DNA of 63,391 bases, counting the filler, from Basidiobolus ranarum (Eukaryota): assembly GCA_040143965.1 (NCBI GenBank). It is 42 parts of 42 records of this genome, joined end to end, with 100 filler letters (N's around TTAATTAATTAA, not from the genome) between each part and the next. Parts side by side here need not be neighbours in the genome. Positions count along the whole stretch, not along the records: positions 1,519 to 2,936 come from JASJQH010012121.1; 41 more parts are not named here. The stretch is one strand, 5' to 3'. Shown piece by piece: positions 1,519-60,381 of this stretch; within the stretch, counting starts at the first letter, position 1; each line of letters starts with the position of its first letter. Both the position numbers and the translations under genes were made by a program. The notes under the pieces are model-generated. The model saw nothing but the letters and a program-made list of their open reading frames with translations. It was not told the DNA's origin and ran no database searches.

Positions 1519-1519
1519 T

Positions 1520-2083
1520 GATCACCTCATCTTAGCTACCAATACCATAGACCAACTAGATCTCGTCCATTTCTCCAAACCCAGATCTGCCAACAAAACT
1601 TTTAAATCCAATCCAACCCAATGTTTACTTGACATTATAGATCTTTGTTCTACCAAAATGGGTAAACGACTCCTGAAGAAACGATTGCTCTCCCCCATCA
1701 CCAATCCTCACAAATTAGAACACCGCTTTTGCCAATTAGATGAATTTGGTTCCCTTTTTGACTCCTTTGTTAAAACCTTTGGACGCCTTTTAGCCAATAT
1801 TGCCAACTTAGAACAACTCCACCGCAGACTCCTTTTAGAAGTTTTAACTTTGCACAAACTTGCTCGTCTGTATACTTCTTACGTAGCCATATTAGATCTA
1901 TGCAATCTTCTTAGCCCAACCTTTTCTTCACTTGATGAAATTTCCAATTCTAAATCTTTTTCATCTGATGCCATTCTTAATTTGCAATCTTTGTCACTTG
2001 ATGAAACTTCCAATTCTAAATCTTTTTCATCTGATGAAACTTCCAATTCTAAATCTTTTTCGTCTGATGAAACTTCCAATTAA
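1520..2083 (+). pseudogene. MutS-family lever (domain III) fragment, intronless, MutS7-like, 5' truncated by the contig edge
   Basis: The frame is open from 1520: DHLILATNTIDQLDLV...CLLDIIDLCSTKMGKRLLKKRLLSPITNPHKLEHRF...LANIANLEQLHRRLLLEVLTLHKLARLYTSY. This fits the MutS pattern LL..LD...T.MG.RLL...L..P and DLERL. It ends in a tandem repeat and a stop before the ATPase domain. Confidence 0.75.
1922..2080 (+). repeat. 33-bp in-frame tandem repeat (SDETSNSKSFS, about 5 units)
   Basis: Unit TCTGATGAAACTTCCAATTCTAAATCTTTTTCA, with degenerate copies on the 5' side. Confidence 0.9.
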
Positions 2084-2742
2084 GGATTTTGAGGACAAAG
2101 TATGATAAATAATCAGAATAAGTGATATTCATTATCCATAGACATATGAAGCTTTCTTTATATTGACCAGCTCTCATGAATATTCATGAGCAGGGGAGAA
2201 TGCAACATTTTTGGTTCACCATGTTCTTTATCTTCTATGCTCTATTGAATCCAATCCATAACTCTTATAGAGAATTTAGGTTTGGATTTTACACCATTTT
2301 CCTACTTCTCTGTGTTAGAATTACAGTGTTGATTCACCCACTTTCTCATGGTAACTTTACCAGTCTTCTCTTCCTCCCATTTTCTTATGGTATTTGTACA
2401 CCACCATTTGGCTTTTCTCTGGTTTTCCTATTGTCTTCATTTGCATATTTTTTAAGGGTATTTAACATGGCTTATTTGTCTTCATTAGGCTTGCCAACAG
2501 TTGCATATAAGACTTAGCCTGATACAGTATTTTGCCTCATCTGTATTTCACAGAAAATTTGCAAAGAATAAAGCATTGTTCTGTAACCTCCATACACTGT
2601 GAAAAATACAGCTAAGGACTAAATGAGAAACATCAAAGTTTGATTCAACTCTGGTAGTGTTTAATCTATGATCATGCACACTCTGGCACAAATTGCTTGC
2701 CCAGCTTTCTGAGTGTAAAGCAAGTCACCAGTGATCAGTTAA

Positions 2743-2936
2743 CCCTAACAAAAATAAAATCGATTTGATCCGGATCAGATCCACCCTCCGAAATAGCAAA
2801 ACCGTCAGAGAACCGTCACAATATTGTTGGCTTGCATTCTGCCAGGGATTTTGATGATGTGACGGCGGTTTCTTGACGGTATCTTGGCGGTATTCATACA
2901 TGTTAAATTATTGATCCTCAAATTTGGCATGCGTTA
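2743..2936 (+). mobile_element. CACTA-like terminus A (CCCTAACA...) with subterminal repeats
   Basis: Begins CCCTAACAAAAAT and matches 21290-21482 in reverse, where similarity stops exactly at GTTAGGG. Contains a GATCCGGATC palindrome and ACCGTCA/TGACGG repeats. Confidence 0.75.
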
Positions 2937-3036: not shown

Positions 3037-4006
3037 TTAGACGAGGATAACAAGCTCTTACCCAGATAAAACAGAACAGAACAAAAGATACTTTCAGACC
3101 TAATACTAATGGTTGAATCCAGCTTATCGTAGTCTTAACCCAATTTAATGCCCCTCCTAGCTCAGGATATAACCAGGCTGGCCCCACCTCTCCGGCAGAG
3201 GCAAAGGTAGTAGAGATAGGTAGGCTCGCGAGTGGAACTAAGTAACCTCCAAAGAATAATATAATAGTAAAAGTAGAAATTAAGATCATAGAACCATATT
3301 CTGCCAGGAAGAATAGAGCAAAACTTAGAGAAGAATGTTCTGTATTGAATCCTGAAACTAATTCACTTTCTGCTTCGGGTAAATCGAAAGGTGCTCGATT
3401 TGTTTCAGCTAGGGCAGAAATAAAGAATATCAGAGCTAAAGGTAATAAAGGAAATAAGAACCAAATAGCTTTTTGTGATTCAATAATTGAACTAAGATTT
3501 AATGTTCCAGCTATAATTACTATTGGTAATATAATTAATCCAAAGTTTATTTCATAAGCAATCATTTGAGCTGTTGATCTTAATGAACCTAAAAATGCAT
3601 ATTTAGAGTTAGCAGACCAACCTGCAAAAATAATCCCGTATACTCCTAATGAAGATATCGCTAATAAATATAGTATTCCATTATTCATATCTGATAAAGC
3701 TAATCCTTTTGAATAAGGTATTACTGCCCAACCTAAAATACTTAATGTTAAACTTAGTATTGGTGCACCTAAGAATATTGCTCTATTTCCATGTGATACT
3801 ATAATTGTCTCTTTTAGGAATAATTTTAAACCATCCGCTAAAGGTTGTAATATCCCAAATAAACCTACTTTATTTGGTCCTAACCTTCTTTGCATTGAAC
3901 CCATTACCTTTCTTTCTGCTAAAGTTAAATAAGCAATAGTTAATAATAAAGGTAGAATTATCACTATATCCTCTGTTAATGATTTTAACAATATAAGACA
4001 AAACAA
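3037..4006 (-). CDS. nad1: Mitochondrial NADH dehydrogenase subunit 1 (3' end truncated)
   Basis: [47 protein letters not shown] and FIWVRA.YPRL. AT-rich, uninterrupted, all Trp as TGG. Confidence 0.97.
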
Positions 4007-4020
4007 TTTTTATAATACCA

Positions 4021-4454
4021 ACCCAAAGTCCGGGGGGGGGGTTCGTCCGCACCCCGGGGGCGGCGGGGGGGGGGGGGGGGGGGGTCCCCCCTTCGGGACG
4101 GGGGGTTCGCAATCCGTCCCCCCTGGCCCGCATGAAAGGGGCCCCCCAACCCCCCCCCTGGAGAGGGGAGGGGGAAAGCGCTCGCGACTTTCGGGGCACG
4201 GCGAGCCCCACCCCCTAAATGGCCCCCCCCCTTTTCTGCCCCCCCCCCGCGCCACGGCCCGAAGGGACCGTCAAAGGGGCCCCGATTGGCCCCCCCAAAG
4301 GAGGGGGGGGGGGCGGGCCCGTGCCCCCCGGGGGGGGGGGGCCCCCGGGGGGGGCTTTTACATCGCTTTTATTTTGGGGGGGGGGGGGGGCGCCCCCCGA
4401 ACCCCCCGCGCGCCAAACCCACCGCCCCCCCCCCGGCCCTTCCCCCCCCCCCCC
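4021..4454. repeat. Extremely GC-rich, hairpin- and homopolymer-rich tract upstream of nad1 (mitochondrial GC-cluster-like, probably low sequence quality)
   Basis: Abrupt switch from AT-rich to G/C runs. Stems: GGGACGG(4095-4101)/CCGTCCC(4114-4120), CCC-GAA-GGG (4258-4266), CCC-TTC-GGG (4089-4097). Confidence 0.6.
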
Positions 4455-4554: not shown

Positions 4555-5971
4555 CAGTAGGCTTTACGCTCTCAGAGTGCTTAGAATTCACTGTGTGCTT
4601 TACACTCTCAAAATGAGCAGTGCCGGCTGTAGGCTTTACGTTTTCAGAATGACTAGAGCTGACAGTTGGCCTCGAGTCTACAGCGCTGACTGTGGGTTTT
4701 CCGCTAGCAGGGTGCTTAGTACTAACTGTAGATTTTACGCTTTCAGAGCGACTAGAACTGATCGAGGGCTTTACGCTTTCAGAGTGACTAGAGCTGATAG
4801 TTGGCCTTACGCTTTCAGAGTGAGCAGTGCTGGCAGTGGGCTTCTCAATTTCAGAGTGAGCAGAGCTGACTGTGGGTTTGTCGCTTTCAGAGTGCTGATA
4901 ACTGACTGTAGGCTTTAGGCTTTCAGAGTTCTTAGAACTAGCGGTGGGCTTGACGCTTTCGGAATGAGCAGTGCTGGCAGTCGGCTTTACGCTTTCAGTA
5001 TGACTAGAGCTGGCAGTCGGCTTTACGCTTTCGGAGTGAAGTGAGCTGGCAGTGGGTTTTATGCTTTCAGAATGGGCAGAGCCAACGGTTGGCTTCATAA
5101 CTTCAGAGTGCTTGGAACTGACCGTGGGCTTTGCACCCTCAGAGTTGTTAGAATTAGCGGTGGGCTTAACGCTTTCGGAGTGAACAGAGGTGGCAGTAGG
5201 CTTTATGCTTTCAGAATGGGCAGAGCTGACGGTTGGCTTCACAATTTCGGAGTGAGCAGAGCTGGTATTGGAATTCACGATATCAGAGTGAGCAGAACTG
5301 ACAGTGGGCTTAGCACTTTCAGGGTGCTTAGAACTGACAGTGTACTTTACGCTTTCAGATTCAGCAGAACTGGTAGTGGGCTTCACGATTTCAGAATGAG
5401 TAGAGCTGACAGTTGGCTTCATGCTTTCAGAGCGACTAGAACTGGCCGAGGGCTTTACGCTTTCAGTGTGAGCAGAGCTGTCAGTAGACTTCACAATTTT
5501 ATAATGACTTGAGCTGACTGTAGGCTTTACACTTTCAGACTTAGTAGAACTAGTCGTGGGTTTAATGTTTTCGGAATGACTATGGCTGACTGTGGCTTTT
5601 ATGCTTTCAGAGTGAGAAGAACTGGCACTGGGCTTTACATCTTCAGAGTAACTTGAGCTGACAGGTGGTTTTACGCTTTCATAGTGACTAGAGCTGATTA
5701 TTGGCTTCACAATTTCAGAGTGACTTGAGCTAACTGTGGGCTTTATGCTGTCAGAGTGAGGCAGGCTGGCAGTGGGCTTTACAGCTTTAGAGTGACCAGA
5801 GCTGCCAGTCGACTTCACACTTTCGGATTGCTTATAACTGGCAGTGGGTTTTACGCTTTTAGAGTGAGCAGAGCTGACGCTTGGCTTCAAGCTCTCAGAG
5901 TGAGCAGAGCTGACGCTTGGCTTCAAGCTCTCAGAGTGAGCAGAGCTGACGCTTGGCTTCAAGCTCTCAGA
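4555..5971 (-). CDS. Internal fragment of a Ser/Thr/His-rich 12-aa tandem-repeat (mucin/adhesin-like) protein
   Basis: Open across the whole contig. About 39 units of 36 bp (KPTVSSAHSESV) with many synonymous differences and no frameshifts. Confidence 0.8.
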
Positions 5972-21228: not shown

Positions 21229-22643
21229 AGTAAACCCAGTAATTTGCCATTTGAAAATTATATTTTTGCTAAAATTGCTGGATATTGAATAACGCATGCC
21301 AAATTTGACAATCAATATTTTAACATGTATGAATACCACCAAGATACCGTCAAGAAACCACCGTCACATCATCAAAATCCCTGGCACAATGCAAGCCAAC
21401 AATATTGTGACAGTTCTCTGACGGTTTTGCTATTTCAGAGGGTGGATCCGATCCGGATCAAATCGACTTTTTTTTGTTAGGGCGATAAAGGAGGTATTTT
21501 GGGTATATCACAAATATATCATCAGCTGGTTCTGAGATAGTAACACAGATGAGTCATCAGGGTATTTACAAGATATTTCTGGTAATGGATGGCAGTTGAG
21601 GTTTATTATATACTCTTTCCAAGCAATTTCATTACACCAAGTTTACTGTCTGAAAATTTTAATGCCATTCAAAGAGCATTAAAAATCTAAATCAAAATTG
21701 GCTACCAAGCAAAAGCCTGCTGATGAGAAAGGAAAAAACCAGCAAGAACAGAGGTCTTAACTGATGAGCAGTGTAGTACTCTCATATGCACTTTGGAAGG
21801 CATTTACATACTGGAAACTAACTCAAGTAATGATGAAGCATTAGTCAATTTACCAGCTGTGTTCCTATCCAGCCATAGTGCAAGTGAAGAGATTGTAATC
21901 CCCCAATTACATAGTAAGTTAATAGTTTAGTTCAACAGAAGAACCATTAAGACCATCTACTTTCAAAATGGCTACTTTGCCCACTATTGAACAACCCTGA
22001 GTAGAAAATTTGGATAGAACTATTACAACAAGGGAATTGCAGGCAGAACACTGTAATGATTTGTATGCAATCATAAGTAAAACTACAAAGTAGCTATACT
22101 GGGCAGAAAAAGCAATAACACCACAGTATTGTAATTAATGCAGCATTCTGAAGCAACTAGTCAACAGTTAGAGGGTCACTCAGCAATGACACAAGACCTT
22201 CAGAATACTGTACTTGAGCTATAGCAACATGCTGCTCCCTCCAACTATTCTCATATGGCATTTCAATCAATCCCTCACCATACATATGAATGTCACTGTG
22301 ATAATCTAGCAGAGCAGAATATGTGCTGGACCATTTAGCCTACACAAAGACCCAAAATTGCTTGGGCACATGAAAGTAGAAATCACATAGGAAAACAAGC
22401 TAACCAATAGACTCTGAGTGGTTCAGCATATTGGAAACTGTGTGGAATCTTGATGGAAGTCATCTTGATTTGAGCCAATTGTGGAAAAACTAAACACCAG
22501 CTGATATACTGAAGTCTCTTGACTTATTTCATGTGGCTTCTCCTAGGCTTTTGCAAGCAAAAGGCAATTAGGCTACTGCAGGCCTATTCACCAAACATCT
22601 CAAAAATGTACACAATTCTTGACTTGGAAAAGAAAGAAAAGCA
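21229..22643 (+). mobile_element. CACTA terminus A (ends 21482) abutting the intergenic region and ORF2 (ATG 21968) of another copy
   Basis: ...GTTAGGG end. MATLPTIEQP..ITTRELQAEH matches ORF 36850-37212. Confidence 0.8.
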
Positions 22644-22743: not shown

Positions 22744-24157
22744 ACTGAATCAGGTAAATATTGTTTATATTTGGCTTACATACCATTGATTCCCCATCTT
22801 AAAGATTTGATGAAATCACCCAAATATAGATCATTGATCCAATACCAAAGTACTCATTATTAAGCTGATGGTATTGCCAATATACTTGATGTATATCACT
22901 ACCAGTATCTGTAAAGTCATGGTTTCTTTGAGAACACATATCAGCATGCATTTGCATTGGCTCTGGATTGTTTCTCACTAAACAAATATTCTGTTGGAAA
23001 GGCTTGCTGGCCTATAATTTTAATCAACTTAAATCTTCCTCCTTCTGAACAGTATAAGAGTCATAATATTTTGATACTATCCATCATATCTGGACCTAAG
23101 TCACCAGTGCTTATAGATAGCTTCTTGGAGCTCTTGATTGTGGATTTTGAATGGTCATCTAATGGTGTTCAGATGGGTGAATATTTATTAAAGCCAATAT
23201 CATTGTATGTATTGGTGACACTCCTGCCATCAGTAAACATGGAGGTTTTTGTAGGCACAATGCACTTTCTTGCTGTAGATTTTGTCAAATCAATGGAGTT
23301 TACTCTAACGGGCATATGTATTACTACTATCCAAATACAACCCTAAACTTCATGATTTCACTGTCATGAGCCCACTCAGATTTCAATATGATCACTGATA
23401 GCAATTCACCAAATAGTCAGTCTAACATCAAACTTGGTATTAGCTGTAAGCCTAAGATTAAATTGCTGAAGGGCATCCGCTGGAGCCAGAGCTTCCCATA
23501 AGGCACTATGCACTAGCTATTCAACAACATTCCAATACTACTTACCCAGCTATATAGTGAAAAATTCAATAGGAATGAGCCATTTGAGATTGGATCAAAT
23601 TTTGAACTGATTGGGAAAATGCTTGAAAATGTCAAGGTAGCATCATATTTTACCAGGACTCCCATCAATATCCACTCATCTAGGTGTTTATTCAAAGGCA
23701 AAGACTAGAAGTATTGCATTTGTGTATATTCAAGTGGAATTTTGTAAAGATTTCTTCCTGACAAGTATTGGCAACATTGGGAGTTGTTTGTTAATATTGC
23801 TAACATATTCTTATGGCATCAACTCAAATTAGCAGTTCTCAGGCCGATACAGTAGCTGTACAACAATTTGGTAATTGGATACGAAAAAGTGTATTACAGG
23901 TTTCAAGGAGATAGACCGAATCTATGCTGGTTTTCAAAACAGTCCCTACTGCATCTTTCACAATGCTTAGAGATTATAGGCACTTGCTATACTTTCTGGG
24001 AGTTCTCAATAGAGTGCACCTGCAGTGAAATGATGCTCCATGTGAAATTATCAGTATCACGTGTGTGATAATCCAACAGTATCTTTAGGAAAGCTGCAAG
24101 ACAGGCTTCTTGCTCAGATTTATCCAGCTCTGCTGTATTATTGTTTTAGCCAAGGGG
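22744..24157 (+). mobile_element. CACTA transposase core/C-terminus, degenerate
   Basis: CWPIILINLNLPPSEQY, ISGPKSPVLIDSFL, GDTPAISK.GGF..HN...CC.FC, GTMH, and FWEFSIE. Confidence 0.87.
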
Positions 24158-25771: not shown

Positions 25772-27130
25772 ATAGTAATAATGCATATGCCTGTTAGAGT
25801 AACCTCCATTGGTTTGCCAAGATCTACAGCAAGATAGTGCATTTTGCCTGCAAAAACCGCCAACTTTTCTGATGTCAGGAGTGTCACCAAAACACATAAC
25901 AATATTAGCTTCAATAAAATATTCACCCATCTGACCCCCATTGGATAACTGTTCAAATTCCACAATCAAAGGCTCCAAGAAGTTATCTATAAGCACTGGT
26001 GATTTAGGTCCAGATAAGATGGATTGTATCAAAATATTATGACTTTTATACCATTCAGATGGAAGAAGATTTAGGTTGATTAAAATTGTTGGCCAGCAAG
26101 CTTTCCAATGGTATATTTGTTTAGTGAGAAATCATCCAGAGCCAATGCAAATACATGATCATAAGTGCTCTCAAAGAAACCTTGACTTTTCAGATACTGT
26201 TAGTGATATACATCAAGTATATTGGTAAGACCATCAGCTTTATGGTGGGTACTTTGGTATTGGATCAATGATCTATATTTGGGTGAATTCATCAAAACTT
26301 TAAGATGGGGAATCAATGGTATGTAAGCCAAATATGAACAATATTTACCTGATTCAGTGATTGTGTATTGGGTTCAAGCAGTACATGACTTCAGGTTTTT
26401 CTGATCACCAGTGAAAGCCAAGCAACTATTTGGACATGGAGGTAGTTAAATTACTGAAGGATTAAAAGTCATACAATTGACAAGTGTCTTCCACTTGTAC
26501 CAGGTCTGTGGCAAGCAACAGTTGCCAATCATCTGTGGTAAAAGTGTAAGAAAACCAATAAACACCTGGTTGCTAAGAATGGATTGAACTCTCCATGCCT
26601 CAAGAATCAAAGCTGCTTCCTTTATAGTAAGTGTTTTGAGTGGGCTAATGTTTGCCAATAACAAAGAGTCCATAGCAAAACCATTGTGTTCATCTTCAAC
26701 TTCTGATATACTACCATTGGTACTGGAATAACCAAGGTCAACATCTAGCAGCAAGTCCTCAAAGTTGTCTGAAGTTACTGGTTTGGTCAAAGTTGCTTTT
26801 TGACCTACATCATTCTGGTTTAGAGCTGTGGTAACTCCACATTATCTTGACTTTTGCCAGTGTTACCAAAACTTTGGGGCAAACTACAGTCAGTGGACTC
26901 AATGGGCAAAACTGAAGTCAATTTAGTGGACTCACTACTCTTGTTATATACCAGGCTTTGTGCAGCTGGTGGCTTTGTACAGTGACCATGCTTGTGATTA
27001 TTTTTTCCGTGAAGCCTTGGGCTTTCATAAGACTTGTTCCATTTTATTGAGCCAGATCAGGCCAGCTAAAAAGGGTGCCAGCACAAATTGGCATGATTGG
27101 GCACTATCTGGCATGATGTTATTTACCATT
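25772..27130 (-). mobile_element. CACTA transposase N-terminal half, degenerate
   Basis: Collinear with 1-1130 and carries the same motifs. Confidence 0.87.
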
Positions 27131-57949: not shown

Positions 57950-58876
57950 ATGGAGAAAAGCAGCAGCTTACACAATATATTGAGACTACTTGTTCTCATA
58001 TACTTGACTTTCAGAGGCGAAGCGTCAGATACCGGTGCCTATAATTGTGTGCGCCCAGACTATCATCCCTCCAACAATACAATCTACAAGTCATTTCATC
58101 ACTATTCTACGAACATTGTGAACAACGACACTCGCGTAAAAATCCACTATGTTCGTGAAGGGCCAAAGGATGGCCAGACAGTGGTGTTGATTCATGGCTA
58201 TCCTCAGAGTTGGTACGAATGGAGACATCAAATCCCAGAACTTGTCAAGGCTGGGTATCAAGTGGTTGCATTCGATACCCGTGGTCAAGGAGAATCATCC
58301 ATCCCCGATGAGGGATATGATGGGTTAACCGTTGCAACCGATCTGCATCTTGTGCTACAATCGCTAAACATCACCAGAAATGTGCATGTTGTTGGCCACG
58401 ATATTGGAGTATGGATTGGATTTGCCTACGTAAAAGAGTTTGCTAATGAAGTTTCAAGCTTCACAGTAAGTGGGTCACCTATTCCCAATGAAATATTTGG
58501 GGATTTTTCAGCATATCCTAGACCCGGTATATTCAAATGGTGGTTTGCATCCTTGCAAACAGAGCCAAGTCCATTTCCAGAAGACCTTGTTAGATGTAAA
58601 GAGCGCTTATACTTTAGACATACTTTTGACTTTTTGATGCATCCAGATACCCGCTCTGGTATCAACGAAGAAGATTTCGATGAATACATCCGCATCCTGT
58701 CCCGAAAGAACGCATTCAGAGCCGGAAATGATTACTACAGAAACTTTTGGAAGACTGTAGATATATACAAATCTAAGGGATACTACAAGACACCTCTTAC
58801 CATTCCGGTACTTGCTGTAGTTGATACTGTTGTTGGTGCGCTCATTGCCTCAACTACGAAAGACTATGCCTCCAAC
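57950..58876 (+). CDS. Alpha/beta hydrolase of the epoxide hydrolase family, probably secreted, intronless, 3' truncated
   Basis: HGYPQSWYEW, D.RGQGES, VGHDIG (Asp nucleophile) and DYYR. Hydrophobic N-terminus; TATAAA near 57876. Confidence 0.9.
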
Positions 58877-59019: not shown

Positions 59020-60381
59020 CAGAATTATGTAGATAGAAATGCAACTTTGGTTGAGCCAGAAAGTCCAGACAACTTTGAGGACTTGCTGGTGTATGTTGAC
59101 CTTGGTTGTGTTAAAGTATTTGGGAGCCTGTTGGAAGTGGTTTGAAGAATTAGAGGAATTGGTGGTTTTCATATGTTGATTTATTGAGTAGAAAGTTGAC
59201 ATTTATAGTTTTGTTAAGATATTAACATACTAATGTGTAGAATGTGTTAAGAAAGGTCCCAGGAACATGTGTACAAAGTTTGGGGCTTCTAGCACAAGTT
59301 TGAAAAATCTAAATATCTGAGAACTTCTAAGTTGGTAAAAATATTCAAAGTAAATTCCAATTGAGAATAATTGATAATATCTGAGTGAATTATAAGATAA
59401 CTAAGTACTAAGCTATATATGACTATATAGGTGTTTAGGCAATGCTAATTTCAGCAGGTTATTCCAATACTGATGGTAGTATATCAGAAGTTGAAGAAGA
59501 CAACAGTTTTGTTACAGACTCTTTGTTATCAGCAAGCATTAGTCCACTCACAACACTTACAGTAAAGGAAGCAGCTTTGATTATTTGGGAGTGGAGAGTT
59601 CAATCCAATCTTAGCAACCAGGTGTTCATTGGTTTTCTTGTACTTTTACCACAGTTGATTGGCAACTGTTGCTTGTCACAGACCTGGTACAAGTGGAAAA
59701 CACTTGTCAATTGTATGACTCATAATCCTTCAGTAATTAAACTACCTTCATGTCCAAATGGTTGTTTGGCTTTCACCAGCAATCTGTAAAACCTGAAGTC
59801 ATGTACTGTTTGGACACAATTGGCAAATACTGTATCAGGTAAATATTGTTCATATTTGGCCTACAAACCATTGATTCCTTGTCTTAAATTTTTGATGAAA
59901 TCACCCAAATATAGATCAATGATGCAATACCAAAATATTCAGCCTAAAGCTGATGGTATTACTGATATACTTGATGGATAGCACTACCAGAATCTGAAAA
60001 GTCAAGGTTTCTTTGAGAACATGTATGATCATATATTTGCATTGGCTCTGGATGGTTTCTTGCAAAACAAATATAACATTGGAAAGACTTGCTGGCCAAT
60101 AATTTTAATTAACTTAAATCTTCCTCCTTCTGAATGGTATAAGAGTTATTAGATTTTGATACTATCCATCATATCTGGACCTAAATCACCAGTGCCTATA
60201 GATAGCTTCTTGGAGCCTTTAATTGTGGAATTTGAATGGATATCCAATGGGCTTCAGATGGGTGAATATCTTATTAAAGCTAATATCATTGTATGTATTG
60301 GTGACACTCCTGCCATCAGTAAACTTGGAGGTTTTTGCAGGCACAATGCACTATCTTGCTGTAGATTTTGTCAAATCAATG
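59020..60381 (+). mobile_element. CACTA transposase fragment interrupted by a solo LTR
   Basis: Collinear with contig 1. The DLGYS codons are split by the insertion. Confidence 0.87.
59109..59456 (-). mobile_element. Solo LTR family A with TSD GGTTG/GGTTA
   Basis: TG...CA, 348 bp. 5-bp duplication (1 mismatch) at 59104-59108 and 59457-59461. Confidence 0.9.

Follow-up and report, generated by a model that had tools for sequence, protein, structure and literature searches.

The MutS contig and its surroundings

The window, by which we mean the whole stretch of 63,391 bases analysed, consists of 42 contigs of 1405-1418 bp each, ordered by size and joined through N runs around a TTAATTAATTAA linker, and is not a single locus. 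The second of these contigs carries a fragment of a MutS gene (Table 1); it has N spacers at both ends, and its neighbours in the window are physically unrelated to it. The 5' side of the fragment is cut by the contig edge, with the frame beginning one base after the N spacer. As the original prediction had claimed, this frame is open from 1520, 46 codons upstream of the ATG at 1658 (codon 47), down to the TAA at 2081-2083, and the motifs quoted at the time, HLILATNTIDQLDL, RLLSPITN, LHRRLLLEVL and LARLYTSY, were all found in the translation. The Pfam profile MutS_III (PF05192) matched residues 8-155 against its positions 1-141 of 194, with 55 bits (cut-off, 34.1 bits) and an E value of 1.8e-14. 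The MutS lever domain proposed earlier is thus present as a domain III match, but only in its N-terminal two thirds, as the homology stops near 1912. A minisatellite, which is not MutS, stands where the rest of domain III would be. The ORF that starts at the internal ATG is not a genuine gene; it was recovered in our searches as P0003, 100% identical to query residues 47-146.

Table 1. Features of the contig carrying the MutS fragment, in window coordinates
Feature	Position	Strand	Description
Contig with the MutS fragment	1519-2936		1418 bp, GC 36.5%, CpG o/e 0.42
MutS7-derived pseudogene fragment	1520-1912	+	First ~131 residues of MutS domain III (lever/core); 393 bases
Six CpG>CpA-type departures from the clade consensus	1634-1858	+	1634 V>I, 1703 D>N, 1712 E>K, 1805 D>N, 1814 R>Q, 1856 E>K
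ATG-initiated 141-codon ORF	1658-2083	+	Internal start in the relic; continues into the minisatellite
Window-specific CpG-decay substitutions relative to P0002	1730-1816	+	1730 CGC>TGC (R>C), 1805 GAC>AAC (D>N), 1814 CGA>CAA (R>Q)
33-bp tandem repeat (minisatellite)	1933-2081	+	4.5 copies, 80% match, in-frame reading SLDETSNSKSFSSD, then TAA 2081-2083
Non-coding tail	2084-2742		No MutS remnant in any frame
Dispersed repeat, to the contig end	2743-2936		94% identical over 194 bp to contig 15

When the contig was searched by tblastn, the Basidiobolus protein P0002 matched with 94.4% identity over 108 aa, and the environmental protein P0004 with 44.9% over 127 aa (E 4.9e-29). With seven relatives as queries, nothing credible of domain V or of any further MutS sequence was detected beyond 1912 on the contig, nor in any frame of its last 853 bp; the sole match beyond 1912 (26 bits, E 0.34) lay inside the repeat. 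Likewise, seven full or partial relatives gave no credible MutS match on the other 41 window contigs, and a C-terminal HNH endonuclease was absent from the window by tblastn. For domain I of the window copy the contig edge intervenes, and P0002, 94% identical, has this domain (PF01624, 44 bits). The fragment has neither ATPase nor nuclease, domain I is also missing from this contig, and there is no repair function. We considered an intron at the end of the homology and rejected it: no GT donor is present at about 1913, and the sequence around the GT at 1881 is still homologous. In the tail, a 116-aa open frame (2167-2514) showed no Pfam match. The last part of the contig recurs at 94% identity in contig 15 (window about 21290-21482, opposite strand) and is thus a dispersed repeat; it lies about 660 bp downstream of the frame of the fragment, and its partner, contig 15, is CpG-poor.

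The transposon DNA that the original prediction placed beside the fragment does not adjoin it. The Tnp2/KDZ-like transposase at 152-1108 and a mitochondrial ND1 gene at 3038-4009 are window neighbours on other contigs, and the apparent adjacency is an artefact, because the window is made of 42 joined contigs. The remaining contigs hold mainly copia-type retroelements and Tnp2 transposases, with a few host genes. A single Tnp2/Transposase_21-like element was seen in several diverged copies on separate contigs (152-1108, 22915-23343, 25772-26841 and 59439-59786), with common motifs such as ACWPIILNNLNLPPSE and, in some, many internal stops. The ND1 gene (minus strand of contig 3037-4454; Pfam NADHdh, 352 bits) is followed for about 430 bp (4020-4454) by almost nothing but G and C homopolymer runs, which look like a sequencing or assembly artefact. 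Contig 4555-5971 is a single open frame of 472 aa on the minus strand, open at both ends, with serine-rich repeats of about 12 residues resembling SESVKPTVSSAH and no Pfam match, and its product may be a mucin- or cell-wall-like repeat protein. Contig 39 encodes an alpha/beta (epoxide-type) hydrolase (57950-58876). Two B. ranarum proteins match it at 86% and 73% identity and a B. meristosporus protein at 71%, which identifies the window as DNA of a Basidiobolus genome. The next named relatives of the hydrolase are from actinomycetes (Catenuloplanes and Streptomyces, 33-37% identity), and no fungus other than Basidiobolus was found among the 10 matches at E <= 1e-20, making it a candidate for bacterial gene transfer.

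Family assignment and the second Basidiobolus copy

The MutS7 and MutS8 families are said to have been defined by Ogata et al. in 2011. Intact viral MutS7 proteins are thought to recognise mismatches through domain I, to clamp and signal through domains III and V, and to nick by themselves through the HNH domain. An exhaustive search of 1.84 billion protein representatives with the fragment gave 527 matches at E <= 0.001, the best of which was P0002, 94% identical over residues 1-108. P0003 ranked second, followed by P0004, a 953-aa environmental MutS with a C-terminal HNH domain, which matched with 45% identity and 100 bits. One apparent relative, P0005 (962 aa, 94 bits, 14 matched stretches), was discarded as spurious, being a repeat protein that matches one short stretch of the query. 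Among the 150 matches listed, the HNH profile was detected in 108 of the 112 of at least 800 aa; the four without it were one spurious repeat protein, two truncated proteins and one with a Pfam HNH domain. In the alignment, full-length relatives end in the nuclease motif DVHH...N...CH..H, and the HNH profile was built from this segment. The same architecture was found in an ORF of the Nautiliaceae, with domains I, III and V and HNH_2. MutS7 is defined by domains I, III and V and a C-terminal HNH, without domains II and IV (PMC3166940). The HNH domain in 108 of the 112 long matches listed, together with the Nautiliaceae anchor, therefore identifies the ancestral gene as a MutS7, and the fragment is a relic of such a gene and not a working member of the family.

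Domain III is common to all MutS and MSH proteins, and on this ground the fragment could stem, with divergence, from an MSH1-6 gene or pseudogene of the host. The scores speak strongly against this. In a comparison with solved structures, the fragment reached 21 bits with human MSH6, 13 with MSH2 and 15 with E. coli MutS, as compared with 100 bits for the MutS7-type P0004. No MSH-like protein occurred among the 150 matches listed, of which the 112 long ones were classified, and P0002 has no match to MutS_II or MutS_IV. The MutS1 profile TIGR01070 gave 39.9 bits on the fragment, although its cut-off of 641.7 applies to full-length proteins and offers no fair comparison here. A host MSH origin is accordingly the least probable of the alternatives that we considered, close to negligible, and the earlier impression that the fragment resembles MutS7 more than MSH1-6 or MutS1 is borne out by both the scores and the HNH architecture. 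It is on scores and domain architecture that the exclusion of MSH1-6 and MutS1 rests, the trees described below having been built without MSH, MutS1, MutS8 and octocoral sequences.

P0002 is the hypothetical protein K7432_016808 of Basidiobolus ranarum (KAK9759806.1), encoded on a 2.7-kb contig. It reaches 307 residues upstream of the fragment, so as to include domain I, and represents an uninterrupted N-terminal half of 416 aa, which aligned with P0004 over 415 aa (43% identity, E 9e-110) and keeps the motif GSFYE, which we take to be the mismatch-recognition motif. Since every invariant column of alignment A1 (18 rows, P0002 itself among them) is retained, the first 416 residues of P0002 show no visible degradation. 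There are at least two Basidiobolus copies, 94% alike, namely the window copy and K7432_016808; they may be paralogues if they come from one assembly, or orthologues if they come from sister species.

The unbroken N-terminal half of P0002, with its A1-invariant columns and GSFYE retained, and the presence of two copies would be in keeping with a working, domesticated Basidiobolus MutS7 resembling octocoral mtMutS, of which the window would contain one exon or a recent dead duplicate. Against this, the 25 relatives of P0002 (228-728 aa) and the best 120 listed relatives of P0004 (524-1668 aa) include no second protein from Basidiobolus and none from any other fungus, and hence no Basidiobolus protein with domain V or HNH, although the proteomes of B. 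meristosporus and B. ranarum are both within the collection searched. In addition, the window copy passes into a minisatellite and then a stop, no exon follows in the next 853 bp, its homology ends without a GT donor, and residues conserved at 98-100% in its clade have been exchanged. We therefore regard domestication as unlikely, and a dead relic as the better description of the window copy.

Probable viral source and CpG-type decay

A pattern scan of the viral collection with alignment A1 yielded 324 candidate stretches, of which 286 were confirmed to encode relatives; for the metagenome collection the corresponding figures were 595 and 547. Among the 80 viral-collection loci listed, 51 bear the names of giant-virus MAGs. 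The three closest loci among those listed were L003, L082 and L081, with 43%, 42% and 41% identity, respectively. Their flanks, of 33-44% GC, encode Rpb1 (one copy adjoining an intein), PolB with an intein, an SNF2/DEAD helicase, two DUF5906 NTPases (D5-like) and an ATP-dependent DNA ligase. The motif AAAATTGA, presumably the Mimiviridae early-promoter motif, was not enriched in the flanks of L003, L081 and L082, where it occurred 1, 4 and 0 times, as compared with shuffle means of 2.3, 1.6 and 2.2. As a separate observation, many environmental MutS7 genes (P0010, P0053, P0089 and P0135) carry Hint/homing-endonuclease inteins within the ATPase domain, and in the flanks of L081 and L082 the neighbouring Rpb1 and PolB genes also have inteins. 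In the ESM Atlas, the clusters nearest P0002 were labelled 75-96% Viruses, most commonly Nucleocytoviricota, which we use as a lead only; a chordate MSH-like cluster first appeared at rank 13.

A FastTree phylogeny was computed from 259 rows and 404 columns spanning P0002, with 10 Campylobacterota rows included. The fragment and P0002 formed a pair with support 1.0, and this fungal pair fell in a 54-member clade with L003, L081 and L082 that is embedded among sequences of the viral collection. A branch of support 1.0 separates that clade from the 10 Campylobacterota rows. In an IQ-TREE analysis under LG+C20+F+G4, with 50 of the 259 rows (209 left out) and the 404 columns, the fungal pair was recovered at 100/100, as was a 24-row clade composed of the pair, L003, L081, L082 and 19 environmental proteins. 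The named anchors in these trees are Lebetimonas/Nautiliaceae and GVMAG labels, with no named virus isolate among them. The trees have no MutS1 outgroup, because the Campylobacterota supplied none: the MutS1 cut-off was reached in 0 of 61 genomes.

Uptake of a Campylobacterota-type MutS7 from a bacterium by horizontal transfer would offer another source. Basidiobolus is reported to have acquired bacterial genes, and the window hydrolase described above looks like such an uptake. The Campylobacterota share the domain architecture, with a MutS7-like frame of 918-1032 aa in 17 of the 61 sampled genomes, and P0002 shares 35% identity with a protein of Lebetimonas. A scan of prokaryote genomes with P0301 returned 5 Nautiliales loci; with alignment A1, it returned 36 pattern matches and no relative. 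However, relatives in a viral context are nearer (43-46% as compared with 35%), the fungal pair lies within the viral clade at 100/100, and forcing the Basidiobolus pair together with five Campylobacterota rows lowered lnL by 163 (p-AU 8e-5), by which the bacterial topology is rejected. A bacterial origin is thus highly improbable, and the grouping with giant viruses that had been proposed for the fragment is upheld. Judged from the phylogeny, with the Atlas labels as a lead, the fragment is a gene of viral descent.

We compared the window copy with P0002 and with the viral clade at the level of single substitutions. There are 7 differences from P0002 over 109 shared residues. The last two fall at the end of the P0002 gene model, where the window reads GAA GTT and where the gene finder plausibly called a GT donor. 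Three of the five internal differences are CpG>TpG or CpG>CpA on the window side. The original prediction had read GCC AAC TTA GAA CAA (1802-1816) as a decayed sequence whose reversion would change ANLEQ to ADLER, and ADLER is exactly what P0002 carries. It had also suggested a reversion of CAC AAA at two places (1709-1714 and 1853-1858), and both lysines face glutamate in the clade consensus, at 69% and 100%, respectively.

Using the columns conserved at >=60% among the 52 non-fungal clade members as the consensus, we counted 26 departures in the window, for 21 of which a single base change suffices. The CpG>CpA type accounts for 6 of these 21, as compared with 3 of 111 in 8 viral controls (Fisher odds ratio 14.4, p 5e-4), in agreement with the claim that the departures are enriched at CpG sites. 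Residues conserved at 98-100% in the clade have been exchanged in the window copy (D96N, G107E, P111L and E113K). As P0002 also has K65 and E107, some of the changes predate the split of the copies. Within 1520-1912 the CpG o/e amounts to 0.63, and elsewhere on the contig to 0.35, as compared with 0.93-1.24 in the MutS genes of L003, L081 and L082; the value of 0.63 is a much milder depletion than that of the transposon contigs (0.00-0.16). Across the window, CpG o/e is bimodal, with 0.00-0.16 in retroelement and transposase contigs and 0.4-1.0 in genic contigs, a distribution that fits CpG methylation aimed at transposons in the Basidiobolus genome. Since the 26 departures are within the range of genuine viral relatives (11-33), sequence decay alone would not prove a pseudogene. 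The copy is dead, and the firm evidence for this is the truncation, not the substitution load. The description of the fragment as a decaying foreign insertion thus agrees with its truncation at 1912, the minisatellite and stop, and the enrichment of CpG-type departures.

The most probable history is the following. DNA of a MutS7-bearing giant virus would have entered the nuclear genome of a Basidiobolus ancestor, and the MutS7 gene would then have been inherited or duplicated to give the >=2 copies that are 94% alike. The window copy has lost all that followed the N-terminal two thirds of domain III, where a 33-bp minisatellite and a stop now stand, and C-to-T decay has built up at its CpG sites, as expected of a genome with CpG methylation, which is itself presumed here. 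We assign a probability of roughly 0.8 to the reading in which 1520-1912 holds the dead remains of a giant-virus-type MutS7 gene in the Basidiobolus genome.

A point to be weighed against this reading is whether the contig is chromosomal. It might instead be a co-assembled contaminant, belonging to a giant virus (free or episomal) or to some other organism of the culture. The contig is short (1.4 kb) and bears no host gene and no visible junction with one; its only link to other DNA of the assembly is the 194-bp repeat shared with contig 15, which is not proven host DNA, and its CpG depletion is only moderate. A separate point against the relic reading is that no other NCLDV marker was detected in the window among the 63 ORFs scanned of 79 of at least 85 aa, 16 overlapping or junk frames having been left out. 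A free virus, however, would be expected to have an intact MutS7, whereas here the gene is cut and a minisatellite is present instead. The enrichment of CpG-type decay over the viral copies, the repeat common to this contig and a CpG-poor contig of the same assembly, and the annotation of a 94% identical copy in B. ranarum likewise argue against contamination, which we consider to have only a small chance of being correct, and in favor of an endogenous relic.

Relation to known giant-virus genes and meaning for Basidiobolus

The relatives of the fragment resemble the MutS7 of Mimiviridae/Imitervirales in sharing domains I, III and V with a C-terminal HNH, in being located on giant-virus MAG contigs and, in some cases, in carrying inteins, which are frequent in viral genes. 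MutS7 has been described as the one protein unique to Mimiviridae and present in all of their fully sequenced genomes (Claverie & Abergel 2018, PMC6163669), and a 2023 review states that MutS is found 'in particular' in Imitervirales (PMC10583209). In contrast to these viral genes, only about 131 residues of domain III are seen here, in a fungal genome, and the clade nearest the fragment consists of unnamed environmental sequences whose flanks show no enrichment of AAAATTGA. The mtMutS of octocorals is likewise a MutS7 gene that was moved horizontally into a eukaryote, but it is intact, expressed and mitochondrial (Bilewitch & Degnan 2011, PMC3166940), whereas the Basidiobolus fragment is truncated, lacks the ATPase and nuclease, lies near a dispersed repeat and is on a contig read in the standard code.

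Endogenous giant-virus DNA is already known from Basidiobolus, and the MutS7 relic is a further, putative example of it. Gong et al. (2020) screened 1,006 fungal genomes with PolB alone; the endogenous elements that they described are Pithovirus-like and come from 14 species, with B. meristosporus and B. heterosporus among them (PMC7017919). These 'fundsalphaviruses' are similar to the present case in that giant-virus genes have been fossilised in early-diverging fungi including Basidiobolus, with stops, frameshifts and, sometimes, retrotransposons nearby (PMC7017919). They differ in being PolB-probed and Pithovirus-like and in the absence of MutS from the shared genes listed in that article; in its main text, the word 'MutS' does not occur (PMC7017919). 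The comparison suggests that the MutS7 comes either from another virus lineage or from the same one, as a gene so far unrecorded there. A second group, the Mycodnaviridae/Mycodnavirales, comprises both fungal giant-virus relics and live infections, in a lineage near Imitervirales (PMC13533422; PMC13524828). Myers et al. (2026) reported Mycodnaviridae in Chytridiomycota, Blastocladiomycota and Monoblepharidomycota, with one match in Zoopagomycota (Dimargaris), and no MCP in 40 non-zoosporic fungi (PMC13533422); neither 'Basidiobolus' nor 'MutS' appears in the main text of that article. We found no report of a MutS7 in a fungus among the full-text papers listed, although the supplements of PMC7017919 and PMC13533422 could list one.

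Giant-virus fossils in fungi are few. The known Basidiobolus elements were probed with PolB alone and are Pithovirus-like, and the fungal giant-virus family described recently was seen only in zoosporic fungi and in one species of Zoopagomycota. The MutS7 relic therefore adds a marker whose usual tie is to the Mimivirus side, in a non-zoosporic fungus, and MutS7 suggests itself as a cheap second probe for fungal genomes. The relic also provides a possible host link for an unassigned environmental virus clade; by itself, it is one 393-base fragment without function. The 52-member environmental MutS7 sister clade lies on contigs of up to 137 kb, with NCLDV genes in the three flanks examined. We tentatively suggest, as a possibility that is more doubtful than probable, that this clade is a lineage of giant viruses whose present or former hosts are non-flagellated fungi of terrestrial or gut habitats, Basidiobolus being an example. 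If so, the Basidiobolus relic would be the first host anchor of the clade and would represent a second virus lineage in Basidiobolus, beside the Pithovirus-like elements, and MutS7-bearing (Imitervirales- or Mycodnavirales-like) giant viruses would reach beyond the zoosporic fungi.
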